60,041 nucleotides of DNA from Akkermansia muciniphila (lineage in GTDB: Bacteria > Verrucomicrobiota > Verrucomicrobiia > Limisphaerales > UBA1100), in contig CAMDOH010000006.1 of NCBI GenBank assembly GCA_945903605.1, positions 1 through 60,041 on the forward strand, given 5' to 3'. A program made the translations under genes and the position numbers. This document shows, piece after piece, positions 5,885 through 34,510 of the stretch. The first letter of the stretch is position 1, and every line of letters starts with the position of its first letter. A model generated the notes under the pieces. The model was not told where the DNA came from. It was given only the letters and a program-made list of their open reading frames with translations, and made no database searches.

Positions 5885-5905
5885 ATTCGCCGGGTTCGTC
5901 AGGAC

Positions 5906-10760: not shown

Positions 10761-12759
10761 ACGGCGTCAAACGCCACTCCTCGACCAGCTCCTTTGGAAT
10801 CTCATTCAAGAATCGCGATGGTGACTGCATCGCATCACCGCCGCCGTATCCACCGATGGCTCGCAAAATCGGATGGCAGAAATAAAGCTGATCCTTCGCG
10901 CGGGTGATGGCCACGTAAAAAAGGCGCCGCTCCTCTTCCTCCCCTTCTTCCTCGTCAAGCGAGCGTGCGCTCGGAAACAACCCGTCGCAAAGCATGATGA
11001 CAAACACCACTTTGAATTCCAACCCCTTGGCTTGATGTATGGTCGAAAGTTTGAGTTGCTCGTCATCGCCGCTACGTCCAGCAGCCGACTTCCCCTCATC
11101 AGCCTCAATATTGGTGAGCAGCGCAAGTTGAGCGAGAAAGTCCTCCACCGAATTGAATTGCCGCGCAAAGATGGCCAGCTGCTCGATGTCTTCCTTTCGC
11201 GTTGACCAGTTGGTGTAGTTTTCCTTCAAGTGATCCTCGTATCCAGCATCCACCACCATCTGAATCATTCGCGCCGCATCTGCACGCACCTCGGAGATCT
11301 GCAAAAAAGTCTCCGCGAATTGTGTCCATGCCGGGACGACTTTTTTGGGCACCTTTGGCAAGCATGCCTTGAGAGCGGCGCCCTGTTGGGTTGACTCCGT
11401 GTGTTGGGCTGAAAACAAACTCCACAATTTGTCGGCGCCCTTATTGCCGATGCCCGGCAATAACTTTGCCAGTCGCTTGAAAGCCACTTCGTCGCGTGGA
11501 TTGACAACCAGCTTGAGATGCGCCGCCACATCCTTGATGTGAGCCTGTTCAAAAAAACGGATGCCGCTGGTGATGCTGAACGGAATGTTGCGGCGCGTCA
11601 GCTCAAGCTGCATCTCCAGCGCGTGGAAGTGCGACCGATAAAGCACAGCCATATCGGACATTGGCATTCCCTCGTCGCGAAGCTCAAGCACGCGCTGGGC
11701 GACAAATGCAGCCTGCTCCGCCGAGTCATTGCAGGTGACCAAAACAGGCTTGGCGCCCGGCGACCGCGACGGCTGCAGCTCCTTGTGAAATTGCCGTTCA
11801 TTGGCGATGATGGCGGCGTTTGCCACGGCGAGAATTTGCGGCGTGCTGCGATAGTTGGTCTCAATCTTGTGAACGGTGGCACCGTGATAGCGGTCGGGGA
11901 ATTTGAGGATGTTTTCAAAACTCGCACCGCGCCACGCATAGATGCTCTGCGCGTCGTCGCCTACCACCATGATGTTTCTATTCCGCTCGGCGAGCAGGTC
12001 GATCAACTCACCCTGCAAACGATTCGTGTCCTGATATTCGTCGACCAAAATGAATTGAAAACGTCGTTGATACAGTTCGAGGATGTCCGGCTCCTGACGC
12101 AAAATGCGGAGCCACAGCGAAAGTAGATCGTCGAAATCCACTGCGTTGCTCGTGCTTTTGCGCTCGGTGTATCGCCGCTGCAGATCTTTGATCTGCGGCG
12201 CAAGGTGACTGAAGTGTCCGTATTTCTTGGCGACAGTTTCCTCAATTGAATCTCCCGTGTTCATCACGGAGGAAAAGATGTCGCCGATCAAATCCGGCTT
12301 CGGAAATCGCGTCGCCTTCGTGTCGATGCCAGCATCAGCCACGCAGGCTTGGATCAGTTCCTTCGCGTCGTCACGATCCAGAATACTGAAGTCACGCCCG
12401 AGCTGGATCCGGTCGGCGTGTAATCGCAGCACGCGATTGCCAATGGAATGAAATGTCCCGCCCCATAATTCAGGCAACTCGCGCCCAAGCAACTCGGCCA
12501 CACGCCGCATCATCTCGCGTGCTGCCTTATTTGTAAAAGTAAGCAGGAGGATCCGATCGGCGGGGATTCCTTGTTCCAGCAGCCAGGCGACCCGGAATGT
12601 GAGCGTGCGCGTTTTGCCCGAGCCTGCCCCGGCGATGACCAATGCTGGACCGGGTGGCGCCGTGACAGCGGCGTGCTGCTGCGCGTTCAATTCTTTGGCG
12701 TAATCAATCTGCAGATCGACTGGCGGCCGATACGCCTGCATCACATACTCACGCGTCAT
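10750..12759 (-). CDS. uvrD: ATP-dependent DNA helicase, UvrD/PcrA/Rep family
   Basis: AGAGSGKT, TFTNKAA, VDEYQD, GDDAQSIY, NYRS, TIHQAKGLEF, EERRLFYVAITRA. Start at MTREY chosen because a TATCGT box lies 7 nt upstream. Confidence 0.95.
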   Translation of the reverse strand: MTREYVMQAYRPPVDLQIDYAKELNAQQHAAVTAPPGPALVIAGAGSGKTRTLTFRVAWLLEQGIPADRILLLTFTNKAAREMMRRVAELLGRELPELWGGTFHSIGNRVLRLHADRIQLGRDFSILDRDDAKELIQACVADAGIDTKATRFPKPDLIGDIFSSVMNTGDSIEETVAKKYGHFSHLAPQIKDLQRRYTERKSTSNAVDFDDLLSLWLRILRQEPDILELYQRRFQFILVDEYQDTNRLQGELIDLLAERNRNIMVVGDDAQSIYAWRGASFENILKFPDRYHGATVHKIETNYRSTPQILAVANAAIIANERQFHKELQPSRSPGAKPVLVTCNDSAEQAAFVAQRVLELRDEGMPMSDMAVLYRSHFHALEMQLELTRRNIPFSITSGIRFFEQAHIKDVAAHLKLVVNPRDEVAFKRLAKLLPGIGNKGADKLWSLFSAQHTESTQQGAALKACLPKVPKKVVPAWTQFAETFLQISEVRADAARMIQMVVDAGYEDHLKENYTNWSTRKEDIEQLAIFARQFNSVEDFLAQLALLTNIEADEGKSAAGRSGDDEQLKLSTIHQAKGLEFKVVFVIMLCDGLFPSARSLDEEEGEEEERRLFYVAITRAKDQLYFCHPILRAIGGYGGGDAMQSPSRFLNEIPKELVEEWRLTPFTS

Positions 12760-12849
12760 TCGGCGAACGATAGCCACGCTGAGCCGGAAGCAAAAGATTT
12801 TACAAGCTGCGGGCAGCCGCTACGTTGTCGGTTCCGAATTGAGCAAGCC

Positions 12850-14676
12850 ATGTCACGCCATCCACAGTTGACCGCCAATATCGATCCGACCTTTGGTGCA
12901 AAATCGCGAACCACTTGGGAAATTGTGGCTCGCGTGGCCATCTACCTCCGCCCTTATCCGTGGATGGCGCTGGGGACGGTCAGTTGTGCGTTGTTTTCAT
13001 TGGCCTTCGCCTTCTCGTATCCAAAACTGACGCAACACGTCATCGACGAAGTGATCGGCAATAAACGCACCGACCTACTTGCGCCCGTCATGCTTGTATT
13101 GTTGGGAGCGTTTGCGATGAGGGAGCTATTCAACAGCCTGCGTATTCGCATCAACAACGAACTTGAGCAGCACGTGATTCTCGACATGCGACGCGATGTC
13201 TATTCGCGGCTACAACGATTGCCCGTGGGCTACTTCGACCAGCGCGCCACAGGCGATTTGATGACTCGCGTGATCGAAGACGTGAACAGTGTCGAGCGAC
13301 TGCTAATCGATGGCACCGAGCAGGGAAGCGTCGCCATCTTGAGCATCATCGGCGTACTTGTGATCCTATTTTTGACCAGCGCAAAGTTAGCGCTCGTGGC
13401 GCTCTCACCCGTTCCGTTCCTGATAATCGGCGCGCTTTGGTACACGCTCACGGCTCATCACCGCTATCGCAAACAACGCGTCGCCTCCAGCGCGATGAAC
13501 GCGCTTCTGATGGACAACCTGCAAGGTGTGCGCCAAATCAAGGCATTCGGTCGCGAGCCGCACGAGGACGCGCGATTTCTTGACCGCGCCGAATCGCTTC
13601 GCGAGGGAACGCTCTCCGTGATGCGCGCGTGGGCGCTGTATTCACCGGCGATGACTCTGATCGCCTCTCTGGGAACGGGCCTTGTCCTTTGGGTCGGCGG
13701 CGGCATGGTGATCGCTGGCGAAATGACCGTCGGGACATTGATCGGGTTCATTTTTTATCTCGCGCTATTTTATGAGCCAGTCCGACAGTTGCACGGACTG
13801 AATCAGTTGCTGCAAGCCGCTCGCGCCGCCGGCGAACGTGTGTTCGACATTCTCGACACAACGGCGGAGGAAAGGCCACCGACCATCGCCACTTCAAAAC
13901 TTGATCATGCGCGCGGCGAGGTTGTGTATGAAAAAGTCTGTTTCAGCTACGGCTCAGAGCGGACGACTTTGAAAGACATTTCACTTCATGCCAAACCGGA
14001 TGAGATGATTGCGCTGGTTGGGCCGACTGGCGCGGGGAAAAGCACACTCGTGAATCTGCTCCCGGCATTTTACGAACACACCGCTGGCATAATCCGAATT
14101 GACGGTGTCGATATCCGATCGATGCGGCTCGAGTCGCTCCGTTCTCAAATCAGTGTGGTGAGTCAGGAACCGTTTCTTTTCAATGGATCGGTCCGTGAGA
14201 ATATTTTGTACGGAAAACTCGATGCCTCGGAAACTGAGTTGGCTACGGCCGCGAGTGCGGCCAACTGTCATGAATTCATCACTCAACTTTCTGAAGGCTA
14301 CGATACGCATGTGGGCGAGCGCGGAGTGAAGCTGAGCGTGGGAGAAAAGCAGCGTGTCTCCATTGCTCGCGCGCTGCTTGCCGACCGCCCCATCCTGATT
14401 CTTGATGAAGCCACGGCCAGCGTGGACACCGCAACCGAACGACTGATTCAAGAAGCGCTGGAGCGGCTGATGAAAGGTCGCACGAGTTTTGTCATCGCAC
14501 ACCGGCTCTCAACTATTCGTCATGCAAGCCAGATTCTCGTGATGCGACACGGTGAGATTGCTGAGCGCGGCACGCATGAAGAATTGATGGCGGTGAACGG
14601 CCTGTACGCCCAGCTTGCTCGAGTGCAGAACGTCACTTTCATCGAGGAGCAATTCGAGAAGCTGTCTCTTGTTTGA
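12850..14676 (+). CDS. ABC exporter, fused permease + ATPase (MsbA-like)
   Basis: TM domain followed by GPTGAGKST, LSVGEKQR, ILDEATASVD, IAHRLST. Confidence 0.93.
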   Translation: MSRHPQLTANIDPTFGAKSRTTWEIVARVAIYLRPYPWMALGTVSCALFSLAFAFSYPKLTQHVIDEVIGNKRTDLLAPVMLVLLGAFAMRELFNSLRIRINNELEQHVILDMRRDVYSRLQRLPVGYFDQRATGDLMTRVIEDVNSVERLLIDGTEQGSVAILSIIGVLVILFLTSAKLALVALSPVPFLIIGALWYTLTAHHRYRKQRVASSAMNALLMDNLQGVRQIKAFGREPHEDARFLDRAESLREGTLSVMRAWALYSPAMTLIASLGTGLVLWVGGGMVIAGEMTVGTLIGFIFYLALFYEPVRQLHGLNQLLQAARAAGERVFDILDTTAEERPPTIATSKLDHARGEVVYEKVCFSYGSERTTLKDISLHAKPDEMIALVGPTGAGKSTLVNLLPAFYEHTAGIIRIDGVDIRSMRLESLRSQISVVSQEPFLFNGSVRENILYGKLDASETELATAASAANCHEFITQLSEGYDTHVGERGVKLSVGEKQRVSIARALLADRPILILDEATASVDTATERLIQEALERLMKGRTSFVIAHRLSTIRHASQILVMRHGEIAERGTHEELMAVNGLYAQLARVQNVTFIEEQFEKLSLV

Positions 14677-14694
14677 GAGAATCGCAGCAGTCGA

Positions 14695-16839
14695 TCAGAT
14701 CAGATTTTTCAGTTCGCGATGGTTGACTTTGCCTGTCCCCAATTTCGGAATATCCCGCACATATTTCAACTCGCGCGGCAGGCAAAGATTGCTCAAGCCT
14801 TTGGCGCGGATGGCGGCTCGGATTTCCTCCAATGTGACCAATGAGTTGTTGGTGACGGCGATCATGACTTCGCCTTTGTCAATATCGGGGCGCGTGGCAA
14901 CGACCACTTCGGCATTCGCCGCCACATGCACAAAAACTCCGGCCAACGCTTCTTCTACAGCCGTGAGGCTCACCATCTCTCCACTGATTTTGGCGAATCG
15001 TTTGAGCCTGCCCAGCACGTGAATGCAGCCATCGGCATCTACTTTGACGATGTCGCCAGTGTCATACCAACCGCCGAGCGCCTGGAATTGCGCATTGGCA
15101 TCGGGGTTGAGATAGCCCTTCATGATGTTGGGTCCGCGGACAAAGAGGCGGCCGCCTTCGGCAACTCCTTCAACGCTTTCCAGTTTCCATTCGATGCGCG
15201 GCAAGATGCGCCCCGCTGTGCCGTGCATGATGTCACCAGGCGAATTGAAGGAGACAATCGGGCTGCATTCTGTGGCGCCGTAAGCTTCAAGAATTCGCAC
15301 GCCGAAACGCCGGCCCCAAATGGCGGCTGTGGATTCCTGAACTTTTTCCGCGCCTGCAAAGAGACAGCGGAGCGAGCGGAAATCATACGAGTGCGCCTTG
15401 CGCGCATAGCCATTGAGGAAGGTGTTCGTGCTGATCATGATTGTGCAATTGCGGTCGCTGAAGAGCATCGGAACGAGTCGGTAATGCAGTGGATTCGGGT
15501 AGAGAAAACAATAGATTCCGCGCACCAATGGAACCAACGTGCCGATGACGAACCCGGCACTGTGGAAAATGGGAAGGCAGTTGAAGAGGCGATCGCGGTC
15601 GCCAATGTCCGCCGCTGATAGAATTTGCCGAATGTTGGCGAGCAGATTTTGATGCGTCAATTCAACTGCCTTTGGCTGGCCTTCCGACCCGCTGGTGAAA
15701 AGAATGACGGCAGTGTCGGCAAAAGGAGTGTACCGCATCTGCGCCCAAGGCAGGAAACGATGGGCCAGCGCGGTCTTCAACTGGCTCATCTTGGGAATCT
15801 GTTTCGCGACATCTTCCAAATAAAGGAGCTGAATGCCGGCGGCTTGGAGCGGGCTGAGATCTAGTTTCTGTCGTTCGATAAACGCACGTGAGGTGACGAT
15901 CTGCCGTAGTCCAGCCAGATGAGCGCAGGCCAGCATCATGGGCGTGCCTGTGGTGAAATTAAGAATGGCCGGCACTCTTCCCGCAATCCACAGACTGAGA
16001 AAGACGATTGGCGCAGCGTTCACATTAGGGAGCAGCACTCCAATTCGGTTGTCCGTGCCGCAGAGTGCCGACCATCGTTCGGCAAGTAGATCTGCCCGGA
16101 CAAATACTTCGCGGAAGGTGAGTGATTTGTAGGTGTGATCTTCCAATGCATCAGCATGAGGTTGGGTACGTGCGGATTCAGCGGCGGCGAGCAATACTGT
16201 CGGCTGCCCCAATTTCATTTCCACATCGAACCGTTGGGTGATCATTTCTTGTCGGATCCAATTGGTAAGTCGGCGACGGGTTTCCAACCCTGAAAGACCC
16301 ACAAATGTCGGCGGCTGTTTCACCTCGCTGTAGTGGGCGGATATTTTGGTGAACGTTTTCTTCCAACCGCTGTGCGGAGAAAGCAGCACGCGCTCCGTAC
16401 CGCGCAAATAACAGAAAATGACTCTGGCGCGACTCTTCTGAAGCAGAAAGCCGGCACCTTCAAAGATCCTCATCAACGAACCCGTTTGCGAAAGTCGACC
16501 TTCTGGAAATAAAAGTAGCCGGCCTCCAGAGGACAGATGTTCGGAAACGCGCTTGAGCGAATAGGGCGACGCGGTGTCGATGGGATAGGTGCGCCCGTTC
16601 ACCATCAGATAACGGTGCAGCCACGAAGCCTGGGCAGTGGTGCTGGAGGAGATAAAGCGCCAGTCGCCGTCCAAGTCGGCAAGAATGAATAGCCAGTCAA
16701 TCCAGGAAACGTGATTGGCCAAGAGTAGAATTGGCCCGGGCGTTTTCAGAACCTCAATATTGGTGGAGTGGAATCGGAACAACACGCGCAATAAAAACCG
16801 CGCGAACGGGCCAAATAGAAATCTCTCGAACCAGTTCAT
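14695..16839 (-). CDS. aas: Bifunctional lysophospholipid acyltransferase / acyl-ACP synthetase (Aas-like)
   Basis: NHVSWID and FPEGR (PlsC motifs); FTSGSEGQPK, YGATE, YDTGD, RFAKISGE and PKLGTGK (AMP-binding motifs). Confidence 0.9.
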   Translation of the reverse strand: MNWFERFLFGPFARFLLRVLFRFHSTNIEVLKTPGPILLLANHVSWIDWLFILADLDGDWRFISSSTTAQASWLHRYLMVNGRTYPIDTASPYSLKRVSEHLSSGGRLLLFPEGRLSQTGSLMRIFEGAGFLLQKSRARVIFCYLRGTERVLLSPHSGWKKTFTKISAHYSEVKQPPTFVGLSGLETRRRLTNWIRQEMITQRFDVEMKLGQPTVLLAAAESARTQPHADALEDHTYKSLTFREVFVRADLLAERWSALCGTDNRIGVLLPNVNAAPIVFLSLWIAGRVPAILNFTTGTPMMLACAHLAGLRQIVTSRAFIERQKLDLSPLQAAGIQLLYLEDVAKQIPKMSQLKTALAHRFLPWAQMRYTPFADTAVILFTSGSEGQPKAVELTHQNLLANIRQILSAADIGDRDRLFNCLPIFHSAGFVIGTLVPLVRGIYCFLYPNPLHYRLVPMLFSDRNCTIMISTNTFLNGYARKAHSYDFRSLRCLFAGAEKVQESTAAIWGRRFGVRILEAYGATECSPIVSFNSPGDIMHGTAGRILPRIEWKLESVEGVAEGGRLFVRGPNIMKGYLNPDANAQFQALGGWYDTGDIVKVDADGCIHVLGRLKRFAKISGEMVSLTAVEEALAGVFVHVAANAEVVVATRPDIDKGEVMIAVTNNSLVTLEEIRAAIRAKGLSNLCLPRELKYVRDIPKLGTGKVNHRELKNLI

Positions 16840-17333
16840 CGGCGGCGCCTCTTCGTTGGGGTTGAGCGCTCTGAATACGACTGCCGCGCGATATTGGCGG
16901 CGGCAATCAACTTTTCCATTTGAGCATTGAGCTGTTTGGCTTCAGTCGCACTCAAGTGATCCAGCAGATGCTCGCCGGCAAGATAATGTTCAGGTCGGAT
17001 TTCATCAACCAAACGGCGCCCGCGCGCGGTGAGCTTGACGGCGTATGCGCGAGTGTCCTGCGAGTGATCCGTCCGCTGCAACAATCCTCTCGATTCCAAG
17101 CGCGGCAACTGACCCGTCACATTGGATCGATGCGTCAATAACTGGCGGCTGACTTCGATTTGCGTGCAACCTTGCGGGTATTCGTACAGTAGATTGAGGA
17201 CGTTGAATTGGCTTGAGGTCAAATGCCAGCGGCCAAAGAAGACTCTGCTGGCATCCCAGACCCCTTCCGAAGCGCGCAATAATTGGAGCAATGCGAGATA
17301 ACGCCAGCGGGTTGTCGAAGGGGCCTTGCTCAT
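16836..17333 (-). CDS. MarR family transcriptional regulator, translationally coupled to aas
   Basis: LTSSQFNVL..RSNVT..LESRGLL..DTR..LTARG winged HTH; ATGA overlap with aas. Confidence 0.9.
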   Translation of the reverse strand: MSKAPSTTRWRYLALLQLLRASEGVWDASRVFFGRWHLTSSQFNVLNLLYEYPQGCTQIEVSRQLLTHRSNVTGQLPRLESRGLLQRTDHSQDTRAYAVKLTARGRRLVDEIRPEHYLAGEHLLDHLSATEAKQLNAQMEKLIAAANIARQSYSERSTPTKRRRR

Positions 17334-17340
17334 GCTTCAA

Positions 17341-17371
17341 ATTATGTTTTCACATTGTTGAGACGTCAACA
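17341..17371 (-). promoter_or_regulatory. marR promoter overlapped by a palindromic operator
   Basis: Minus strand TTGACG (17369-17364)-N17-CATAAT (17346-17341), 7 nt before the ATG. Inverted repeat TGTTGA-N4-TCAACA (17356-17371) overlaps the -35 box. Confidence 0.75.
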
Positions 17372-17464
17372 TGTTTTCAGCTTCTTAGCTCCATTCTGGA
17401 CATTTCCACATTGCCCGAATGGCACCAAAAAGAGTCTGCTCAACATTGTTGCGGAGAATAGCTC

Positions 17465-19729
17465 GTGTCAAAAAACTCTAATAATGGCTCTCATTCGCCA
17501 AGCCGCGCCACCTCATCGGACTTCTCCTGGCTGCCCCAAGACCAATGGCCATGGTCCACAGCTATTGTGCTGATGTCCGTAGTCTGGTTTTTCAGCGTGT
17601 TGGTTCGCCTAAATTGGATCGGCGACGCAACCCAGATTGACTCATTCATGTGGAATGGCGTTCCTCTCGTGACCACGAATGATAGCTACCTGTTCGGATC
17701 CATTGCGCAGAAGGCGATTGGTGGGACGGCATCAAACGTAGCCGACTGCCCGGGAATCTTGGATCATGGAATGATCACAGTGCTGCTGTTCGTGTCCGCC
17801 AAATGGACGGGCTTGAGCGTGGATACTCTGATGATCTGGCTGCCCGTATTCATCGGCGGAATAGTAGCGATCCCTGTTTTTCTGATTGGCCGACTCTTCG
17901 GTTCCACGCTGTGGGGATTTTGTGCCGCCGTGTTGGCGAGCGTGGCGCAGAGCTACTACAACCGTACGATGGCTGGATACTTCGACACGGATATGTTCTC
18001 CATCACTGTGCCCGCATTTGCCTTGTACTGTTTGCTTGCCGCGCACCGTAAGGAAAGTTTTGCATGGCTCACCGCTGGATCCGCCACTTTGTTCATCTAT
18101 CCTTTTTTTTATTTCCCCGGAGTGCCGATTGCTTATGCCTTGGCGCTCACCTTCGTAGGATTCCGGCTTCTGACTCGATTCCGACATCCGATGACATGGC
18201 AGTCCTTCTTACTCCTTGGACTGGCCGTGATGATTCTTGATGGATCAACGGGCAGAGCTATTGCGCGCGCCCCCTTGTTGTGGTTCGTGCGTGCAGCCAT
18301 CCTGTATGCAGCGTCAGTGATTCTTCAAAAGACTGCTGGCTCAATGCAAGTGCCATGGAGAAGTCGATCCGTGATGGCGGCCTGTGCGCTGACATGTCTG
18401 GGTGTGATTGTGTTCTCTGAACCGATCAAACACATTGGCCGTAGAACTTCTGAATACATTGGCGCGCGCTCCGAGCTATTGCCCCAATCTCCAGCGGATG
18501 GGCTGAATTTTTTCAAAGCTGGATCTTTGGTAGTCGAGGCGCAAACCGCCAACTCACTCCGCGAGAATATTGTCATCACGGCAAGGCGTGTGTCCGGTTC
18601 CCTCATTGGCGGAATTCTCGCAATTGCAGGTTTTGTTCTGCTCGTTTTTCACGCGAGAGAGTTTGCCATCGCTTTACCCTTCGTCGGATTTGCGTATCTG
18701 GCCATGCAGGGTGGGGAGCGATTCACTATTCATGCGGTGCCAATCGGAGCGCTTTCGGCCACGGCTATTTGCTTTTGGCTTCCAAACTTGATGATGAAGA
18801 AAGCGCCCGGCGCAGGGAAGATGATTGGCTTGGCCGTCTGCAGCCTCCTCCTTTTTGCCAATCTTCAACACGTCGCCGCGTATAAAACTTCTCCAGTGCT
18901 AGACAGCAAGTCCGTCGCCACACTGGCGCAAACTGCACCTAAGTCAGATGCAGGTGATTACCTGATCACTTGGTGGGATTATGGAACGGCGGCTTGGTAT
19001 TACTCCGGATTGAATACCGTCTGTAATCCCGGAAATCAAAACTCCGACATTTATCTCGTTGCTAAGATTCTCAATTCGCCATCGCAGGCACTTGCCGCAA
19101 ATCTGACGAAGGTCGCAATCGAGACTCACGCGGAAGCGTCACCCAGCCGTCCTGTGATTCGGCGACTGCTCAAGCCGCACGTCAAATCAATCGCTGGACT
19201 CGATGGGTTTTTCTCCGAGGTCAGTTCAACGAATTATTTGGCTCCGGCCAAAACCCGGGAGACATACCTGTTCCTCAATCATCAGATGTTAAATTTCATT
19301 CCCGCCATGCGACTTTTTAGTGAGCGGGATTTGTTGACCGGCGAGCCTCACCCCGGTCGTACGTTCATCTCATTTAACGATTGGAAAAGTGATGGCCAGA
19401 TTCTGCAGGCAACAAGGGGGGCCATTCGGATGCAAGTGGACAGGAAAAATCTCCAAGCCACGCTTGATGATGGACGCCAATTCGCTCTCAACAACTTTGA
19501 CTACATTCCGGCTGCGCAAGCAGGCCGACTGTCCATCAAAAGGCAGTCAGGCCATCCGACATCTCCGTTCCGTTTGGTCATTCGCGAAGAACCGCCGCTC
19601 TGCATTCTCATGGAAGAAGACATCTTCCATTCCAATTTTGTGCAGATGTATTTGTACGAATCCTTCGATGCAGAACGGTTCGAGCGCGTAGCGGGAAACC
19701 CGTACGCCATCATGTACCGCGTGAAATAA
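17465..19729 (+). CDS. pglB: STT3/PglB-type oligosaccharyltransferase (N-glycosylation)
   Basis: TTNDSY, SYYNRTMAGYFDTDM, VVE (TIxE-equivalent), RFTIHAVP, WWDYG; multi-TM N-domain plus soluble C-domain. GTG start is uncertain. Confidence 0.9.
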   Translation: MSKNSNNGSHSPSRATSSDFSWLPQDQWPWSTAIVLMSVVWFFSVLVRLNWIGDATQIDSFMWNGVPLVTTNDSYLFGSIAQKAIGGTASNVADCPGILDHGMITVLLFVSAKWTGLSVDTLMIWLPVFIGGIVAIPVFLIGRLFGSTLWGFCAAVLASVAQSYYNRTMAGYFDTDMFSITVPAFALYCLLAAHRKESFAWLTAGSATLFIYPFFYFPGVPIAYALALTFVGFRLLTRFRHPMTWQSFLLLGLAVMILDGSTGRAIARAPLLWFVRAAILYAASVILQKTAGSMQVPWRSRSVMAACALTCLGVIVFSEPIKHIGRRTSEYIGARSELLPQSPADGLNFFKAGSLVVEAQTANSLRENIVITARRVSGSLIGGILAIAGFVLLVFHAREFAIALPFVGFAYLAMQGGERFTIHAVPIGALSATAICFWLPNLMMKKAPGAGKMIGLAVCSLLLFANLQHVAAYKTSPVLDSKSVATLAQTAPKSDAGDYLITWWDYGTAAWYYSGLNTVCNPGNQNSDIYLVAKILNSPSQALAANLTKVAIETHAEASPSRPVIRRLLKPHVKSIAGLDGFFSEVSSTNYLAPAKTRETYLFLNHQMLNFIPAMRLFSERDLLTGEPHPGRTFISFNDWKSDGQILQATRGAIRMQVDRKNLQATLDDGRQFALNNFDYIPAAQAGRLSIKRQSGHPTSPFRLVIREEPPLCILMEEDIFHSNFVQMYLYESFDAERFERVAGNPYAIMYRVK

Positions 19730-19765
19730 CGCACTCCACGACCCGTCGCTCCGCAAATTGGGGGG

Positions 19766-20830
19766 CTATTTCTTCTCTACAATCCAAACGTTCCTGAACT
19801 GAAGTGGATTGCCGTGGCCTTGCAGCTTGATGGGGCCGGGCGTGCCTTCTGGCTCCGAACGCGCACCGCCAGTCACGCCGCTGATGCTGAGATCCTGATG
19901 GATGATCACTCCATTGTGCTTGAGCGTCATCACTGGATTCTTGATCTTTTTGCCCGACTCATCCAGCACGGCATTGGTAAAGTCCACATCATAAGTCTGC
20001 CAAACGAGCGGAGGCAGGCACATGTTCACTTTCGGTTCTGCTTTAGTGTACACACCGCCGCACTCATTGTTTTTTCCGTCGAGCCCGAATGAATCGAGAA
20101 TCTGCACCTCGTAATGATCCACTTGATAGAACCCCGAATTTCCTCGTCCCTGTCCGCGACCTTCGGGCCTGTATGGAAGCAAGAATTCCATGTGCATGGT
20201 GTAGTTGCTGAATTTCTTTGCCGTGACGATGTCTGCGCCGTCGGTGTTGAGCAGCTTGCTTTTTGCGTCCAGTCTCCCGCCTTTCCATGCTTCCTTATTG
20301 GCGCCATCAAACAAGACCGTTGCCCCAGCGGGAGGCATCGCGCCCATCGACGGGCTGACACGCACTTTTTTCTTCAACGAAAATGCCGCCCCTCCTTCAA
20401 TCTGTCCGCTGAAAACATCCTCGCTGATTGTTCCGCTGGCTGGCTTGTGGCCGTCGGACGGATACTTGCTCGTCGCGCTGAACTCCTCGGCTTTTTGCGC
20501 GAGATATTTACGCGCCCCTGTCGCCGGCTCAAACACCGCTTTATTTCCTACCAGTTTGCCGCTGAGTAGAATCTTGCTCTTGCCATCCCAGCCCGCGCCG
20601 GGCAATCCGCCGGGCAGAATCACAGCTTGAAAAAAGCCTCCGTTCAACGCGATGACCTGAGCGCCTAATTTGTCGCCGGCATATTCACCTTGAATGGCGA
20701 AATCGATCGGAATCGTGGAGTCGGTCGCGTCGGTCCAGACGACCTTCGCGCCAGCAGGCGCTGCGCTGGCAATTGAGGCACCAAGACAGACCGAAGCAAA
20801 TCCGGCCATGGAATGGATAATATTACGCAT
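19766..20830 (-). CDS. Secreted DUF1080 (3-keto-glycoside hydrolase/eliminase-like) protein
   Basis: Signal peptide; GNSG, YEVQILDS, WQTYDV, GPIKLQGHGNPLQFRNVWI. Confidence 0.88.
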   Translation of the reverse strand: MRNIIHSMAGFASVCLGASIASAAPAGAKVVWTDATDSTIPIDFAIQGEYAGDKLGAQVIALNGGFFQAVILPGGLPGAGWDGKSKILLSGKLVGNKAVFEPATGARKYLAQKAEEFSATSKYPSDGHKPASGTISEDVFSGQIEGGAAFSLKKKVRVSPSMGAMPPAGATVLFDGANKEAWKGGRLDAKSKLLNTDGADIVTAKKFSNYTMHMEFLLPYRPEGRGQGRGNSGFYQVDHYEVQILDSFGLDGKNNECGGVYTKAEPKVNMCLPPLVWQTYDVDFTNAVLDESGKKIKNPVMTLKHNGVIIHQDLSISGVTGGARSEPEGTPGPIKLQGHGNPLQFRNVWIVEKK

Positions 20831-20967
20831 GTTATTTCTTATTGTGGTTGCGGCGCAATCATACCGTCGCATTTCACTCCTGCAACCAAAACAACAGCAC
20901 CCATCCATTCCAGCCGATGCGACCAAGTGCGCTTGCCTCGCGTAATTGGCCACGTCATGGTTTGCAC

Positions 20968-22131
20968 ATGCAATTGACGAATGCGCGCCTAATTTTGCCC
21001 GATGTCATCCGCGAAGGCTCACTCACATTGCGCGAAGGGCGCATCGCCAACGTCGGCCGTGCCCATCCAAAAGCCCGTGGCAAAGAGCGATTGGATTTGA
21101 AAGGGGGATTTCTCGCGCCGGGATTTATCGACCTTCATATCCACGGCGCCGTCGGCCATGACACGATGGAGGCCACTCCCGAGGCATTCAAGGCCATCAC
21201 CGATTTTCATCTTCGCGGCGGCACCACATCGCTCACGCTCACCACACTCACAGCTCCGCACGCCGACATCATGCGAACGCTCGAAGCCATCAAGCCGATG
21301 CACAACCGTTCGCTCGGCGGTTCGCGCATCATTGGCGTGCATGTTGAAGGCCCGTATATTTCGCCGCTGCGCGTCGGCGCGCAAAATCCGAAATACGTTC
21401 GCCCGCCGAACAACCCCTCCGAATGGCGACAGATATTGCGTTACGGAAAATTGGTGACGCAAATGACCATCGCACCCGAAGAAGAGGGCGCGCTCGCACT
21501 GATCAAGGCGTTGAAACGAAATGGCACCATCGCATCCGGCGGCCACACAGATGCGAATCACGAACAGCTCATCCCAGCGCTGAAGGCCGGTCTCAATCAG
21601 GCCACACACACGTTCAACCAGATGAGCACCATCACCAAGCGCGGCCCTTATCGCTGGGCGGGGATGATCGAATTCTCGCTCGCACAAGATGAAATTCTTT
21701 GCGAGCTGATCTGCGACGGCAAACACGTGCCGCCCATCATCATGAAAATGTTGTTCAATGCGAAGGGGCGCGATGGCGTCTGCCTGGTTTCTGATGCGAC
21801 GAAAGGAGCGGGGCTGCCTGTCGGCACCGAATTCGAATTGTTCGGCATGACCGCGCGATCTACCCAGCACACTGCCGAACTTGTCGATGGATCCGGCCTT
21901 GCTGGGAGCACGCTCACGATGATCCGCTCCGTGAAGACGGCTGTGGAAATGGGCGGGCAGTTGCTTGTGGATGCCGTGCGAATGGCCTCGCTGAATCCAG
22001 CTCGCCAACTGCGGCGCGAAAAAGAATTCGGCTCGATTGAGTCGGGAAAACGCGCCGACCTCGTGTGGTTCGATGAGAAGTTTCGCGTGCGCGGCGTGTG
22101 GCTCGATGGCGAACAGCGTTTCCTAGCCTGA
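20968..22131 (+). CDS. nagA: N-acetylglucosamine-6-phosphate deacetylase
   Basis: PGFIDLHIHG, HVEGP, GHT, THTFN, VSDA, LAGS, GKRADLV. Confidence 0.92.
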   Translation: MQLTNARLILPDVIREGSLTLREGRIANVGRAHPKARGKERLDLKGGFLAPGFIDLHIHGAVGHDTMEATPEAFKAITDFHLRGGTTSLTLTTLTAPHADIMRTLEAIKPMHNRSLGGSRIIGVHVEGPYISPLRVGAQNPKYVRPPNNPSEWRQILRYGKLVTQMTIAPEEEGALALIKALKRNGTIASGGHTDANHEQLIPALKAGLNQATHTFNQMSTITKRGPYRWAGMIEFSLAQDEILCELICDGKHVPPIIMKMLFNAKGRDGVCLVSDATKGAGLPVGTEFELFGMTARSTQHTAELVDGSGLAGSTLTMIRSVKTAVEMGGQLLVDAVRMASLNPARQLRREKEFGSIESGKRADLVWFDEKFRVRGVWLDGEQRFLA

Positions 22132-23031
22132 TCCATTCCTCTCGCCAAGCGCCTCTTCAATCGCCGCGTTAATCCCGGGAAATCGAAATTGAAATCCCGA
22201 CTCCAGCAGTTTTGTGGGCACGACGCGCTGACTGGCACAGAGTACGTCTTTGACAATCGAGCCGTAGAGCAAGCTCAATAGAAGCGGCGGCGCTGGAAGA
22301 ATGGCTGGTCTGTGGACAGCTTTCGCAATGGCGCGTGTGATTTCTGCATTCGTTGCTGGTTCTGGCGAGACGACATTGACTGCGCCGGAAATATCTTCCC
22401 ACCGCAACACGTGGAGAATTGCCGAAATGGCGTCCACCAAAGAAATCCATGTCCAATACTGTCTCCCCCTCCCAACATTGCCGCCGAGCCCCATTCGGAA
22501 CCACGGAAGCAGTCTCTGTAAAAATGCGCCTTGAGATGTGAGCATTGCGCCAAACCGCAAGTGAACTGTGCGAATGCCTGCGCGTGATGCGGAAACTGAA
22601 GCGCTCTCCCACGCACTACAAACTTCCGCAAGAAAGCCTTTTCCGGTCACGCTGTTCTCATCCAGAATTTCTCCGGGACGATGGCCGTAAATGCCCGTGG
22701 CAGACGCAGCAAGAAATACTCGCGGAGGATTCGGTAGTGTCGCGAGTTTCTCGCAAAGTAATCGGGTGGATTCAACGCGGCTGGAACGGATGCGCCGCAT
22801 CTTGTCCTTGGTCCAGCGTCCGTCTCCGATGTTCTCGCCGCACAGATGGATCACCGCATCGCAATCGTTGAGATGGTGGACGTCCAAGTCTCGTTGTTCC
22901 GGATTCCACAGTATTGAATTGGGCACGCCTGTTTGACGAACGAGCCGCACGACATCGTGACCCTCAGCCAGCAAGCGCTGCATCAATTGCGAGCCGATCA
23001 AACCGCTGGAGCCGCTGACGAGAATTCTCAT
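22123..23031 (-). CDS. TIGR01777/YfcH-like NAD-dependent epimerase family protein
   Basis: SGSSGLIG, GENIGDGRW, SRVEST, FLAEVCSAWE, GFQFRFP. Confidence 0.9.
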   Translation of the reverse strand: MRILVSGSSGLIGSQLMQRLLAEGHDVVRLVRQTGVPNSILWNPEQRDLDVHHLNDCDAVIHLCGENIGDGRWTKDKMRRIRSSRVESTRLLCEKLATLPNPPRVFLAASATGIYGHRPGEILDENSVTGKGFLAEVCSAWESASVSASRAGIRTVHLRFGAMLTSQGAFLQRLLPWFRMGLGGNVGRGRQYWTWISLVDAISAILHVLRWEDISGAVNVVSPEPATNAEITRAIAKAVHRPAILPAPPLLLSLLYGSIVKDVLCASQRVVPTKLLESGFQFRFPGINAAIEEALGERNGSG

Positions 23032-24700: not shown

Positions 24701-25298
24701 ATGTCTAATCATCCAAAGATTTTTCTGAGCCGCGAACTGGAGCAAGCCGGCGTGAATGTCTCCTTCGGCTTGGTCGGATTCAAGATTCACGCAAAACTCT
24801 GCCTGATTGTGCGGCAGGAAGACGATCGCATCCGGCACTATCTCCATCTGAGCACCGGCAATTACAATCCCACCACGGCCCGCACATGCACCGACTACAG
24901 CCTGCTCACGACCCATCCTGAACTCGCTGAAGACGCAGCCGCGCTGTTCAACCAACTCACGGGATTTTGCCAATTCCAGAAAATGCGCAAGCTCATCGTC
25001 GCCCCATTCGAATATCACCAGCGAGTGATTGATCTGATTCGCACAGAAACCAAAACGCACGCGACGGGAAACCCGCGCGTATCACAGCCTTCTGCCCGAT
25101 GGCAGCTATGAATTGTCTGCGCTCAAAGCGGGTGAAAAGCCTGTGAACGCCCAACAGGATTTCATGAAGATCGCGCTCCAGCCGCCCAATAGAAAATCGG
25201 CTCCTTCGAACAAGCACCGCACGGCGCGCCGCCGCACATCTGCTTCCAGTTTAGTCAGGATTGCGCGCGCTCCCGAGCCAGCCATGCCGCACCAGTAA
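24701..25298 (+). pseudogene. ppk1: Polyphosphate kinase (PPK1) remnant with internal deletions and frameshifts
   Basis: GAGGAG RBS plus MSNHPKIFLSREL joined directly to (REL)EQAGV..KIHAKLCLIVR..HLSTGNYN; KNARDGKPARITA is restored only by a frame change; LLPDGSYE..GE..NAQQDFM (PPK1 C-terminus) lies in a third frame. Confidence 0.8.
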
Positions 25299-26318: not shown

Positions 26319-29300
26319 TCATGGCTGCGCAGGCGGCGGCGCGAAGTTGCCGATGGATTTTGCTGCGCCGTCCCAGACACGCAACACGCTGTCCTGTCCT
26401 CCTGCGACCACGATGCTTCCACTTGGCGTCGCCGCAGAGGCGTAAACGAAGTCCGTCGAGCCAGCGTAAGTGCGGACGGTTGATAGGGCGGTTCCCGCCT
26501 TGATTAGTTTCACCTGACTGTCAGCGCCCGTCACGATTGCAGAATCCGTCAGTCCAACAAATTGGATGGACGTGATCTCCTTGCTGAACCCGCCGGTCTT
26601 CGGGCCGCGTTCGCCGGTGACCATGTTCCACGACTTGATCTCGTTGTCCGCACCGCCACTCAAAAGTGTGCGCCCATCGTAACTCCAACCCACCCCGAGC
26701 ACATGATGCGTGTGACCTTCGAATACCTTGGTGACTTTTCCGGTGGCGAGGTCCGTGACCTTCACAAACTTGTCGGACGCCCCCGAGACAAGCACCTGGC
26801 CATTGGCCGAAAATGCCAGACCCAAAACTGCATCGCTATGAACATCCGGCAAATCCTTCACTAGCGCGCCCGTGTTCGCATCCCACAATTTGATCTCGCC
26901 GCCGCGACTCGGCTCGCCGCTGCCCGTGGCAATCCTCAGCCCATCCGGGCTGAAGCGAATCACGTTCACTCGATCGGCAATCTGCGATTTTGCATCACCC
27001 GTTCCCAGTGTGCGCTCCAATTGCCAACCGCGTTGATATCCCCAGAGCACAGCCTTGCGATCGGCGCTGATGATCAAGGCCTGTCCCGGCCCGGCAGCAG
27101 CCACTGATTGAATCGCGCTCTCACCCGTTTTGATGCTTTCCAATAATGTCCCGCTTGAGGAAGCCCACACGTTCAGATGCAGATCGGTTCCGCCTGACAT
27201 CACAAACAAACTGTCCATCGAAAACGCGAGCGTGGCTGAGGGCTTTTCCGCGTCTGTCGCCGCTTTCTTTGCTGCTTCATGAGTTGCCTCAGCCTGCTTT
27301 TGCACCGCCTCGGCGCTGCTCACAGATGTCGTTGCCTGTTTGATTTCCTCATCTGCGCGAAACAGTGCGTTGGTTGACAAAGTGAATTCAGTGACCGCGG
27401 CGACGCGCGGCTGATCGATCTTCTTGAACTCCACATCCGCCGCCTCAACGGCCTTCACCACCACCGCCAATTTATCAGTCGCCACTTTTTCATCCGCAGC
27501 GAGTTTGGTGAGCGCCGCCTTGCTGTCCGTGGCGAGCTTTCGTTTGTCGGCTGCCAATTTGTCGGCATTGGCCAAATCTGTCGTGGCTTTGTCGGCAACT
27601 GGTTTGGCTGCGAGAGCGGCCTTGTCGGAATCCGCAGCGGCTTTGTCAGCGTCGGCCAAGCCCTTCGTTGCAACCGCCACTTCAGCTTTGGCAGCGACCA
27701 GCGCTTTGTCGGCGTCCACTTTTGCCGTTTGCACGGTCACCAATGCTTTTGCTGCAGCATCGACTTTCAACGTTGCTGGTTTCTGTTTCTGATTCACCAG
27801 ATTATCGAACGCAGTCTTTGCATCCGTCGCGGCCTTTCTGGCCACGGCAGCTTCTTGAGCAGCCTTGTCTTTTTCAGCCGCCGGTTTTGCAGCATCGTCC
27901 TTGATCGTTTTGGCCTTGGCTTCACTGGCCTTTGCGGCTGTCTCCGCTGTGTCGGAAATTTGTTTGGCCTTGGCGGTCTCCGTGTTCGCTGCGGTGAGTT
28001 CCTGCTCAGCCGTTTTCATGGCAGCGGCCGCATCCGTCACCGCTTTGTCGGCTGCTGCTGATTTGGTTTCTCCAGTCTTGAGTTTGTTGGCGATGAGGCC
28101 GTCCAACGTCTGCTTCGATGTCGTGGCCAACTGTTTTTTCGTGGTGGCGTCTTTGTCGGCGGCCACTTGATCGGCGATAGGTTTGACAGAAGCGGTCTTG
28201 GAAACTGCGGCGGCGGCTTCGGTTTCCTTGGCCACTTTTTCGGTAACCTCAGACACCTCTGTTGCCTTGGGTGTTTCGCCTTTCAGTTTCGCGACGGCTT
28301 CTTCAGCAATCTTTTTGTCTGCCTCGGCTTTGACGAGCACCGCTTTCTTTTCGGCGATAGGTTCCTTTTCGGCTTTTTCTTTGGCTTCCTTGGCTTTGGC
28401 CAATCGTTCCTGTGTCTTCTTTTGATTGTCCTGTTTGGCCTTGAGATCGCCCTGATGATACGGCACCTCGGACTTGGCAAATGTGAGCAGGCGTTCTTTT
28501 TCTGCAAGTGATTCGCGCGTGGCGTAGCGCCCTTTCAATTCTGCAACGGGCTGGCCATTGGCTGCGTCCCACAATTTGGCAACCCCTGTGTCGCTCGCGG
28601 AAGCGAACCGTTTGCCATCGGGGCTTGCGGCAACAGCGCGAACGGGTGCGCCCTGCGCCATTTGTCGGATCACAGTTCCCTTCTCGACATCCCAGTGACG
28701 CACGGAGGCGTCAGCACTGCCGGAGAGCATTTGCAATCCGCCTGTCAATGCGGCGAGCGAAGTGATCGGGCCGGTGTGTCCCTTGATTTCGCGCGGAGCG
28801 GCAAACGGGCCATTGGCCGCCTCGGGCAATTTCCAAATGCGAATCTGATTGTCGGCATGTCCGGTGGCCAGTTGCTTGCCAGCACTCACCCAAATGAGAG
28901 CCGTGAAATTGGTGGAGGCATTGTTGGTGGATGCAAATGGAGTTCCGTCTGCAGCATTCCAAAGTCTCAGGCTGTTGTCTTGCGATGTGCTGGCCAGCCG
29001 CGTGCTGTCTGGAGAAAATTGGAGCGCGTTGACCGGGCCTGTGTGCCCAGCGATGTTTTTGACCGGCTTCATCGCTGGCAGCTCGTAAAGTCCGATCGCG
29101 TTTCCATCGAGAGCCAAGGCCAGTCGTTTCCCGTCGGGACTGATTACCGCGCCGGGTTGAATCACGACATTGGCCAACGTGCCTGCGGCCGTTGCCGGCT
29201 GACGTTTCCAGATTTTCACTTCGCGATAACCGCCGGAAGCAAGCCTGTCACCTGCGGGATTGAATGCGAGCGAGTGGACCAAATCGCGATGCGCCACTCC

Positions 29301-29909
29301 AAGTTTGCCGTAAATGCCGGCCTTCACAAGCACGGGGTCGGTGAGGCGTTCCACGAGTTGATCTGTGGGGAGATGATAAAGAAAAATCTGATTGGCTCTG
29401 CCCGCAGCGGCGAATTGGCCGTCGCCTGTCACAGAAACGGAATAGATGGGATTCAGGCCCGGAGGCAACGGCTGCCACTCGATTGGCTTGGCCTCGCGCA
29501 TGATGCCTTTGGCACCTTGATTGATCCATAGTTTGACCAATCCCAGTTCCTGCGGTGTGAGCGGCTTCGCTGAAACCTTGTTGTCCGGCGGCGGCATCGA
29601 CGGATCCGACCGGTGGGTGGCAAGTTTGAAGAGGTAACTTTTATCGGCGTCGCCGGGGACGACCACCTTGCCGGATTCGCCGCCCTTGAGTATGTCCTGC
29701 GGCGTCTCAAGAATGAGTTCGCCCTTGGGCTTGGTGCGATTGTGGCAGGCCAGACAGTTGCTGCGGAACACCGGCAGAACTTCGTTCTGAAAATCAACAG
29801 GTGTGGCACGCTTGATTTCCGCCACTTGTAGGACGGGCTTTTTGGCATCCGCCGCGCTGACCGCAAACGCACCCGCCAACAGGCAATAGATGGGGAATGA
29901 TGTTTTCAT
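26319..29909 (-). CDS. Secreted planctomycete-type cytochrome c domain + WD40 propellers interrupted by a long Ala/Lys coiled coil
   Basis: Signal peptide; VDF..EVLP..CLACH..MPP..WI.QGA; many GH..FSPD..WD/WN repeats; ~420 aa A/K/E/D/T-rich helix. Confidence 0.88.
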   Translation of the reverse strand: MKTSFPIYCLLAGAFAVSAADAKKPVLQVAEIKRATPVDFQNEVLPVFRSNCLACHNRTKPKGELILETPQDILKGGESGKVVVPGDADKSYLFKLATHRSDPSMPPPDNKVSAKPLTPQELGLVKLWINQGAKGIMREAKPIEWQPLPPGLNPIYSVSVTGDGQFAAAGRANQIFLYHLPTDQLVERLTDPVLVKAGIYGKLGVAHRDLVHSLAFNPAGDRLASGGYREVKIWKRQPATAAGTLANVVIQPGAVISPDGKRLALALDGNAIGLYELPAMKPVKNIAGHTGPVNALQFSPDSTRLASTSQDNSLRLWNAADGTPFASTNNASTNFTALIWVSAGKQLATGHADNQIRIWKLPEAANGPFAAPREIKGHTGPITSLAALTGGLQMLSGSADASVRHWDVEKGTVIRQMAQGAPVRAVAASPDGKRFASASDTGVAKLWDAANGQPVAELKGRYATRESLAEKERLLTFAKSEVPYHQGDLKAKQDNQKKTQERLAKAKEAKEKAEKEPIAEKKAVLVKAEADKKIAEEAVAKLKGETPKATEVSEVTEKVAKETEAAAAVSKTASVKPIADQVAADKDATTKKQLATTSKQTLDGLIANKLKTGETKSAAADKAVTDAAAAMKTAEQELTAANTETAKAKQISDTAETAAKASEAKAKTIKDDAAKPAAEKDKAAQEAAVARKAATDAKTAFDNLVNQKQKPATLKVDAAAKALVTVQTAKVDADKALVAAKAEVAVATKGLADADKAAADSDKAALAAKPVADKATTDLANADKLAADKRKLATDSKAALTKLAADEKVATDKLAVVVKAVEAADVEFKKIDQPRVAAVTEFTLSTNALFRADEEIKQATTSVSSAEAVQKQAEATHEAAKKAATDAEKPSATLAFSMDSLFVMSGGTDLHLNVWASSSGTLLESIKTGESAIQSVAAAGPGQALIISADRKAVLWGYQRGWQLERTLGTGDAKSQIADRVNVIRFSPDGLRIATGSGEPSRGGEIKLWDANTGALVKDLPDVHSDAVLGLAFSANGQVLVSGASDKFVKVTDLATGKVTKVFEGHTHHVLGVGWSYDGRTLLSGGADNEIKSWNMVTGERGPKTGGFSKEITSIQFVGLTDSAIVTGADSQVKLIKAGTALSTVRTYAGSTDFVYASAATPSGSIVVAGGQDSVLRVWDGAAKSIGNFAPPPAQP
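27260..28530 (-). repeat. Low-complexity Ala/Lys-rich coiled-coil coding region (boundaries approximate)
   Basis: Heptad-like AKxAxEKA/ADKA runs; internal repeat TSKQTLDGLIANKLK vs DAKTAFDNLVNQKQK. Confidence 0.7.
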
Positions 29910-29936
29910 TATTTCGATTTTTAAATTATCCACGCT

Positions 29937-33056: not shown

Positions 33057-33105
33057 AATTTTCCTCATCGGTTCACTTTGGAGACGAAACGGGGCTGGCC
33101 CAGCT

Positions 33106-34500: not shown

Positions 34501-34510
34501 GAGAATTTTC

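Follow-up and report, generated by a model that had tools for sequence, protein, structure and literature searches.

The window analyzed in this study is a stretch of 60,041 nucleotides (contig CAMDOH010000006.1, positions 1 to 60,041, of assembly GCA_945903605.1; Verrucomicrobiota, order Limisphaerales), and its subject is a gene at 17465..19729 whose product resembles the bacterial oligosaccharyltransferase (OST) PglB. Judged by sequence and modeled fold, this product is a full-length PglB-family OST and a member of the GT66 superfamily. It keeps the residues that serve catalysis, pyrophosphate binding and sequon reading in Campylobacter lari PglB, and two elements of the pocket for the donor sugar are replaced together. 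This paired replacement is the most interesting point of the analysis and gives a testable prediction. The gene and its motifs are listed below, with motif coordinates confirmed by translation and residue equivalences taken from a gapless alignment with C. lari PglB:

17465..19729, plus strand: pglB-like gene, 754 aa, GTG start with GGAG about 8 nt upstream of the GTG
17672..17686, plus strand: TTNDS, first acidic motif in external loop 1; D73 = C. lari D56
17978..17995, plus strand: YFDTDM, second DxD motif; D174/D176 = D154/D156
18110..18112, plus strand: Y216 = C. lari Y196 by alignment, a pyrophosphate contact as described in PMC6215017
18527..18538, plus strand: LVVE in external loop 5 (EL5), TIxE-type with Leu for Thr; E358 = catalytic E319
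18581..18592, plus strand: ARRV; R375 = C. lari R331, contact to the -2 Asp of the sequon
18713..18727, plus strand: GERFT; R419 = C. lari R375, pyrophosphate contact
18971..18988, plus strand: WWDYG (503-507 = 463-467), then T508; WWD pocket for the +2 Ser/Thr retained
19025..19039, plus strand: NPGNQ in place of DGGKH (C. lari 481-485), a clade-typical xPxNQ loop; NPGN = residues 521-524
19283..19300, plus strand: QMLNFI, MI-motif region; M608 kept, I572 equivalent = F611

The N-terminal membrane domain is predicted to cover residues 30-472 approximately, with helices that fit 13 transmembrane segments, and to be followed by a periplasmic alpha/beta domain at about 480-754. Both Pfam families STT3 (PF02516; 69.1 bits against a cut-off of 24.5, E 6.7e-19) and STT3-PglB_core (PF21436; 81.5 bits against 23, E 1e-22) were identified, and C. 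lari PglB aligned end to end (query 32-754 on chain 16-711, E 2.5e-62). The sole sequence matches among all solved structures are C. lari PglB (5OGL, 6GXC and 3RCE; E about 1e-62) and the C-terminal domain of Campylobacter jejuni PglB, and the archaeal STT3 model gave 24.5 bits. Nearly the whole NCBIfam equivalog model ProtGlycPglB (NF050801) was matched as well (E 1.2e-79), at 268.6 bits against a cut-off of 1300 that is therefore not reached. Because the score lies below this cut-off and neither Tyr468 nor DGGK is present, the protein is not an equivalog of Campylobacter PglB.

An AlphaFold2 model built with 81 homologues as input has a mean predicted local distance difference test score (pLDDT) of 93.8 and a predicted template modeling score (pTM) of 0.93. 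Its top PDB fold matches are again 5ogl, 6gxc and 3rce, with template modeling scores (TM) of 0.82-0.91 and a root-mean-square deviation of about 3 Å over approximately 743 columns; the best single match is 5ogl_A (TM 0.85/0.91). Fold similarity amounts to TM 0.47-0.62 for AglB and STT3 and to at most 0.51 for other GT-C enzymes (DPY19, PMT, ArnT, ALG and arabinosyltransferases). A first-pass annotation of this DNA had proposed a PglB oligosaccharyltransferase and had named clustering with non-OST GT-C enzymes as the outcome that would speak against it; the fold comparison gave no such clustering and places the protein in the PglB family (TM 0.85-0.91).

Conserved residues and the donor pocket

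All motifs that the first-pass annotation had called intact (TTND, YNRTMAGYFDTD, VVE within LVVE, RF within GERF, and WWDYG) were found on their C. lari PglB counterparts without gaps. D73, E358, R419 and W504 are invariant across the 81 homologues, in which D174, D176, Y216, W503 and D505 reach a conservation of at least 90%. D73 and R375 are also invariant in a set of 22 sequences, and D73, D174, D176, Y216, E358, R375 and R419 are retained throughout a 73-homologue alignment. The MxxI motif of C. lari reads MLNF here, and other clade members have F or I at the Ile position. Comparison with a 97% identical homologue revealed 22 differing positions, one of which is the start codon and none of which is a key residue, in keeping with a gene under constraint.

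The Arg that had been proposed to recognize the -2 position (in RRVSGS) proved to be R375, the equivalent of R331, and it may favor an acidic residue there. No -2 preference is predicted from it, because Desulfovibrio gigas PglB is described as keeping the R331-equivalent Arg and yet having a relaxed -2 rule (PMC4894442). The retained Arg is thus indecisive for this rule, and we found no evidence for the new sequon specificity that had been suggested as a possibility.

The C. lari Tyr468, which directly follows WWDYG, corresponds to Thr508, a change overlooked in the earlier description of the gene; the replacement of DGGK by NPGN, which had been recognized there, is borne out by the gapless alignment. 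The DGGK motif was reportedly found essential in PglB by Barre in 2017. The hydroxyl of Tyr468 is described as hydrogen-bonded to the C2 N-acetyl group that the donor's reducing-end sugar carries, and the residue as strictly conserved and essential (PMC10859629, PMC6215017), and DGGK is presumed to bind the lipid-linked oligosaccharide (LLO) (PMC8342417). In the 73-homologue alignment, WWD[YW]G-[ST] together with xPxNQ, and never DGGK, is present in all 12 labeled Verrucomicrobiota, and WWDYG-Y-P together with DGGKH in all 34 labeled Campylobacterota. The residue after WWDxG and the loop that follows it were further tallied over 172 collected homologous proteins:

Tyr with DG[GS][KR]: 76 of 172
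Tyr with another loop (by eye mostly degenerate DG-x-x-H): 26 of 172
Ser/Thr with another loop: 44 of 172
Phe with another loop: 6 of 172
Gly with another loop: 2 of 172
Trp with another loop: 1 of 172
His with another loop: 1 of 172
No WWD match, partly fragments: 16 of 172

DG[GS][KR] is missing from every one of the 44 Ser/Thr-type sequences, which indicates that the Tyr468 and DGGK positions change together. The pattern fits a remodeled pocket rather than decay, in which the parts that would serve catalysis, pyrophosphate and sequon are constrained and the contacts to the donor sugar are swapped. It suggests either that the hydrogen bond to the C2 substituent is now made by an Asn or Gln of the loop or that the first sugar is a different one, and the reducing-end sugar, or recognition of its C2 substituent, is probably unlike that of the studied enzymes. 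A new glycan specificity had already been considered possible; because Tyr468 and DGGK are replaced jointly across the clade, it is a reasonable inference and a stronger one than was then apparent.

We tentatively raise a broader possibility, which we think could be true but would not yet expect to be, that bacterial OSTs have two types of donor pocket, one with Tyr468 and DGGK(H) and an undescribed one with Ser/Thr and xPxNQ, the latter using a reducing-end sugar that is inaccessible to the studied enzymes. The second type would span the whole Verrucomicrobiota clade and several unlabeled metagenomic clades, and its donor might, for example, be a sugar that lacks the 2-acetamido group or has a larger substituent at C2. 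If so, free-living freshwater and marine Verrucomicrobiota would hold an unstudied N-glycosylation system and a new tool for glycoengineering.

Clade, neighborhood and glycan genes

The 73 rows (717 columns) were used to build an unrooted tree with IQ-TREE, under LG+C20 by posterior mean site frequency (PMSF) in a quick search and with support from the Shimodaira–Hasegawa-like approximate likelihood ratio test (SH-aLRT) only. A branch with support 99 parts the labeled Verrucomicrobiota (12/12) from the labeled Campylobacterota (34/34); the Verrucomicrobiota side also holds 15 rows without an organism label, and specificity for Verrucomicrobiota thus applies to labeled rows only. The protein forms a pair with a Pedosphaera protein (support 100), whose next relatives are 44-45% identical proteins of two lake metagenome-assembled genomes from another family of the same order (support 99). 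That group is sister (98) to long-form proteins of the window's own family (845-970 aa among tree rows). Because the tree separates the two sets of rows, the gene was not recently imported from Campylobacter. The label "Campylobacter-type" in the first-pass annotation therefore holds for the PglB family and fails for the Campylobacter group, given the separate clade and the low score on the equivalog model.

Giant PglB-like frames of about 1600-2400 aa were noticed in three genomes of the same family (G001, C36:67174-71922; G005, C4:66403-71031; G002, C157:11165-16930). Their PglB match falls into 4-5 pieces, with inserts of several hundred residues after the membrane domain and within the periplasmic domain.

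The closest homologues are the 97% protein, which is of metagenomic origin, and a 69% one that carries the name "Pedosphaera sp."; the latter and a 45% homologue are intact. The best named relatives outside Verrucomicrobiota are Campylobacterota at 25-32% identity. Among the 40 nearest genomes, a match is present in 15 of 24 from the window's family and in 1 of 16 from other families. Only 8 of 300 other genomes of the order have a match (E <= 1e-10), and these belong to two families (6/7 and 2/3); none was found with the pglB-like query at this threshold in 400 other genomes sampled across the phylum. Scanning species-representative genomes by pattern yielded 583 relatives, the best 80 of which comprise 7 Verrucomicrobiota and otherwise Campylobacterota. 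When one representative per 50% cluster of approximately 15 billion proteins was searched, 945 matched at E <= 1e-3 and 238 at E <= 1e-30. This is a small family, patchy and rare within Verrucomicrobiota, where the negatives stand for genomes searched with this query.

The host had been called a probable Verrucomicrobium, and this is supported by the DUF1501, PSCyt and PSD1 genes of the window, by the "Pedosphaera sp." homologue and by proteins of same-family genomes that are identical or near-identical to records of "Verrucomicrobia subdivision 3 bacterium," "Verrucomicrobiota bacterium" and "Verrucomicrobiia bacterium." Lake and freshwater metagenomes from six studies contain the stretch, as do three RNA libraries, and a single DNA contig of an independent run spans 12267-21642. 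The record titles of L039 and L040, two genomes with 44-45% relatives of the protein, read "Akkermansia muciniphila," at odds with their place beside Pedosphaera-type genomes, which is probably a submission artefact. The surroundings of the gene in the window contain the following features:

12571..14676, plus strand: MsbA-like ABC exporter, likely true start ATG at 12850, 2.8 kb upstream of the pglB-like gene
14695..16839, minus strand: Aas-like bifunctional acyltransferase / acyl-ACP synthetase, a conserved neighbor in L039 and L040
16836..17333, minus strand: MarR-family regulator, divergent from the pglB-like gene, in the same neighborhood in L039 and L040
17334..17464, strand not assigned: marR/pglB-like divergent intergenic region of 131 bp, with a sigma-70-like promoter for the minus strand and GGAG before GTG
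17349-17373 and 17440-17452, intergenic region: two TCAACA/TGTTGA-type palindromes
19766-20953, minus strand: gene with a DUF1080 / 3-keto-disaccharide-hydrolase domain, convergent with the pglB-like gene; second family member at 45451-46080

Beyond the DUF1080-type gene lie NagA (plus strand) and a YfcH-like oxidoreductase (minus strand). One palindrome overlaps the -35 element of the marR promoter-like site and the other is located just upstream of the pglB ribosome-binding site, and the two may be MarR operators; the window shows no enrichment of their pattern (10 matches vs. 5.3 expected, with 10 reached in 8 of 100 shuffles). The gene order ABC ... Aas-(MFS)-MarR-(VWA)-OST recurs in L039 and L040. 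Since identity between the window and L039 is 72% for the ABC exporter vs. 45% for the OST, and the neighbors lie on the opposite strand or 2.8 kb away, we read this synteny as shared descent and not as a functional unit.

The earlier statement that no pgl or flippase genes are adjacent is correct for pgl genes and needs one caveat for flippases, namely the MsbA-like exporter on the same strand, for which no tie to glycans was found. The genome has only two ABC_membrane genes, of which this exporter is one. It was considered as a glycan flippase and rejected: it scores below the cut-offs for MsbA (465 vs. 602 bits) and PglK (161 vs. 1000 bits), and its 30% identity to the ABC gene in the glycan locus of L048 is mostly in the ATPase part and no better than that of the genome's other ABC exporter.

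The genome assembly comprises 2.68 Mb in 135 contigs, is 91.9% complete and contains the pglB-like gene in single copy. Two Glycos_transf_4 genes were identified, one being MraY in the cell-wall cluster and the other a solitary WecA-like gene of 326 aa (best model WecA, 119.5 bits, under the cut-off), and Glycos_transf_1 and Glycos_transf_2 have 8 matches each. Contig 15 carries a cluster with a nucleotide-sugar dehydrogenase, two family 4 glycosyltransferases (GT4), a PseC/DegT-type aminotransferase, several methyltransferases and a family 2 glycosyltransferase (GT2). On contig 2, a smaller group combines a dehydratase, a methyltransferase and a GT2 with a Wzx-like protein that matches weakly (about 28-29 bits, at the Pfam threshold), and a solitary gene of the Wzy_C/O-antigen-ligase family is also present.

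The WecA-like, glycosyltransferase and Wzx-like genes are on contigs other than that of the OST gene. Since this small genome generally scatters its envelope-glycan genes, an OST gene standing alone is in keeping with the rest. It is plausible from this gene content that a lipid-linked glycan is built in trans, and it may be shared with the ligase-family enzyme. The gene had been described as an orphan, which is accurate at the locus and does not extend to the genome as a whole or to the loci of relatives.

In L039 (12451-15037, minus strand), whose protein is the 45% relative, the OST gene is followed directly by PglF/WbpM-type, PglC-type and amidotransferase genes, that is, a membrane-anchored Polysacc_synt_2 dehydratase of 656 aa, a Bac_transf phosphoglycosyltransferase of 201 aa and an asparagine-synthase-type amidotransferase. 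With the OST gene, this trio is by its predicted functions a minimal pgl-like unit, one that is missing from the window's genome. The OST genes for long-form proteins in L041, L048, L049 and L063 are divergent from a NusG-like gene (172-193 aa) that heads an operon for sugar nucleotides and glycosyltransferases. These operons encode epimerase/dehydratases, two nucleotide-sugar dehydrogenases, DegT aminotransferases and an acetyltransferase, and also NeuB with a cytidylyltransferase, an ABC transporter, or GT2/GT4 enzymes. The long-form-associated NusG-like paralogue was not found in the window's genome, which has one NusG match only. Gene content thus ties the clade as a whole to glycan synthesis, and the window's lineage appears to have lost this linkage.

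The NusG-like paralogue recalls operon-specific antiterminators of polysaccharide loci. An FG-GAP/ASPIC-UnbV protein is encoded downstream in both L048 and L063.

Proposed function and competing explanations

We consider it likely, from sequence and modeled structure, that the gene encodes an intact single-subunit PglB-family OST, probably an active N-glycosylating enzyme with altered donor recognition, that has been inherited within the order. The enzyme would be an inner-membrane protein with a periplasmic C-terminal domain. A glycan would be assembled on undecaprenyl pyrophosphate by the scattered genes (WecA-like initiator, GT4/GT2 clusters and Wzx-like flippase) and transferred en bloc to the Asn of N-x-S/T sites in exported proteins. 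D73 and E358 would activate the Asn amide, and a divalent metal would be held by D174, D176 and E358, with D73 as a further possible ligand. The pyrophosphate would be bound by R419, Y216 and the metal. The sequon would be bound via external loop 5 and its +2 Ser/Thr read by WWD and M608/F611, and the first donor sugar would be read by the differently built pocket of Thr508 and NPGNQ.

The gene is probably transcribed. RNA-library contigs were aligned to 12000-23000, and in one library contigs cover 17964-18799 and 18792-19270 of the pglB-like gene at depths of 5.7-7.6. In the same library the Aas-MarR contig has a depth of 25.9 and the DUF1080 gene one of 104-157, by far the highest among the RNA-library contigs compared, and a DNA run shows an even depth of 35. 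Little or nothing of the gene is covered by runs X12 and X16, from which no conclusion is drawn. The contigs on the gene are a weak hint of low-level transcription.

Several observations weigh against an active enzyme of this kind. Tyr468 and DGGK are both absent, two elements that reports on studied OSTs call essential or strictly conserved, and the equivalog cut-off is not reached. No glycan-synthesis gene lies within approximately 5 kb on either side of the gene, and the PglC-type initiator (Bac_transf, PF02397), for which a search of the genome had been advised together with PglK, has 0 matches in the 91.9%-complete assembly. The RNA-library contigs may include DNA and are no proof of transcription. 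We found no biochemical study of any clade member in the literature searched. Homologues from Flexistipes, Mucispirillum and Latescibacteria and H. pullorum PglB2 are described as giving no transfer of test glycans (PMC11164674); homology alone therefore does not predict activity, as divergent PglB homologues from outside Campylobacter failed such tests.

Sequon statistics belong among these adverse points. A crude gene call (2165 open reading frames) and a crude signal-peptide rule gave 556 exported-like and 1609 other proteins, and N-x-S/T is not enriched in the former (0.98 of the shuffled expectation, n = 556) vs. the latter (1.04, n = 1609). D/E-x-N-x-S/T occurs at 0.67 of expectation (z -3.9) in exported-like proteins and at 0.86 in the others; this depletion is not specific, because the control motif D/E-x-N-x-A/G is likewise low (0.79 and 0.81, respectively). 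No acceptor candidate emerged from the statistics of the exported-like set.

An enzyme that mainly hydrolyzes LLO and releases free periplasmic oligosaccharides, for instance for osmoprotection, with protein glycosylation absent or minor, would account for the lack of sequon enrichment and of a dedicated pgl locus or obvious acceptor gene beside the OST gene. LLO-hydrolyzing activity is described for OSTs of all three domains (PMC8342417). We regard this explanation as unlikely, since the sequon-reading residues (WWD, M608, R375 and the EL5 Glu) are conserved clade-wide and would not be required for hydrolysis alone.

The loss of Tyr468 and DGGK might also mark inactivation, in which case the protein would be a catalytically impaired relic left after glycan genes were lost from a streamlined genome of 2.7 Mb. 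We judge this quite improbable. The same substitutions are fixed in all labeled Verrucomicrobiota (12/12) and in all Ser/Thr-type sequences (44/44), including members inside glycan loci; the frame is open, the other catalytic residues are kept, the 97% homologue is unchanged at the key residues and RNA-library contigs cover the gene. On its side are the reported essentiality of both elements in PglB, the absence of adjacent pgl genes and of a PglC-type gene in the genome, and the PglF/PglC-like genes that still accompany the OST gene in L039.

The acceptor could be something other than the Asn of N-x-S/T, either another residue or a non-protein component of the envelope, as with other GT-C enzymes. 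The conserved neighbors are lipid-homeostasis genes (Aas, MFS/LplT-like and MsbA-like ABC) and not glycoprotein genes; these neighbors are, however, better conserved than the OST, in a pattern that looks like synteny by descent. The Asn-amide contacts D73 and E358 and the WWD pocket for the +2 hydroxyl are retained, and fold similarity to non-OST GT-C enzymes is low, which makes a different acceptor very unlikely.

A pglB of Campylobacter type acquired horizontally in recent times, or a Campylobacterota contig binned by mistake, is scarcely credible as the source of the gene and already contradicted: the G+C content around the gene is slightly lower (0.525-0.534 vs. 0.55-0.64 elsewhere in the window) and the best named relatives outside the phylum are the Campylobacterota noted above, but the tree splits the two phyla at 99, the gene is mid-contig among PVC-typical genes, the ABC-Aas-MarR-pglB synteny is common to two other genomes of the order, and the independent DNA contig spans the locus.

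The protein can also be compared with known systems. C. lari and C. jejuni PglB (GT66) have the same end-to-end architecture and fold, and they share the acidic motifs, the EL5 Glu, the pyrophosphate Arg and Tyr, WWDYG and the -2-contacting Arg; the protein is about 23-30% identical to them and falls in a clade of its own. It differs from them in Tyr468 to Thr508, DGGKH to NPGNQ, TIxE to LVVE and MxxI to MxxF; its gene also lies outside a pgl locus, and no PglC-type initiator was found in the genome. The Desulfovibrio PglBs with relaxed sequon preference (D. gigas, D. marinus and others), compared by description only, are likewise divergent, outside Campylobacterota and marked by small motif deviations (WWDWG, DGGR and NL; PMC12229607); they essentially keep DGG, in contrast to xPxNQ here.

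H. pullorum PglB2 and other stand-alone homologues are similarly encoded away from a complete pgl locus. The former is described as not transferring the C. jejuni heptasaccharide (PMC11164674); it comes from a different phylum and clade and is said to keep all essential residues, whereas the protein studied here is without two of them. AglB (A. fulgidus, 7E9S/3WAK) and STT3 belong to the same superfamily and share its catalytic motifs, and in fold they are far more distant. Euryarchaeal AglBs are described as keeping DGGK, and STT3 as having DNxTZNx[T/S] instead (PMC8342417).

The holders of PglB homologues named in a 2015 survey are epsilonproteobacteria, deltaproteobacteria and aquificae. 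Full-text searches, whose coverage leaves out most subscription journals, returned no paper on a verrucomicrobial OST or on this PglB clade, nor a relevant one on PglB N-linked glycosylation in Planctomycetes. To our knowledge, work on bacterial protein N-glycosylation has been confined almost entirely to Campylobacterota and a few Desulfovibrio. The present findings reveal that abundant uncultured Verrucomicrobiota of lakes and the sea have a distinct and conserved PglB clade in which two donor-recognition elements deemed indispensable are replaced together. If its enzymes are active, they would widen the known range of bacterial N-glycosylation and test the claimed universality of the Tyr/N-acetyl contact in OSTs, with a bearing on the glycans that can be attached in engineered bacteria.

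Other features of the window

Genes of the DUF1501, PSCyt and PSD1 kinds, typical of the Planctomycetes–Verrucomicrobia–Chlamydiae (PVC) group, abound in the window, and an LptF/G permease is encoded at 54685-55830. A run of DUF1501/PSCyt2/PSD1 genes (29937-41148) adjoins a gene at 26319-29933 (minus strand) for a protein of 1204 aa with a planctomycete cytochrome c domain and two large WD40 propellers. The open reading frame at 24701-25111 (plus strand, 136 aa) matches part of the polyphosphate kinase C-terminal domain 1 (profile 81-164 of 167) and looks like a broken ppk remnant, flanked by short open reading frames without a family. A radical-SAM protein followed directly by a GT2 glycosyltransferase of 232 aa is encoded at 48336-50414 (plus strand), 30 kb downstream of the OST gene. 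At 4127-6790 (plus strand), a 585-aa fusion of DUF116 and polyprenyl synthetase precedes a prenyltransferase/terpene-cyclase-like alpha-alpha toroid protein, an unusual isoprenoid pair.

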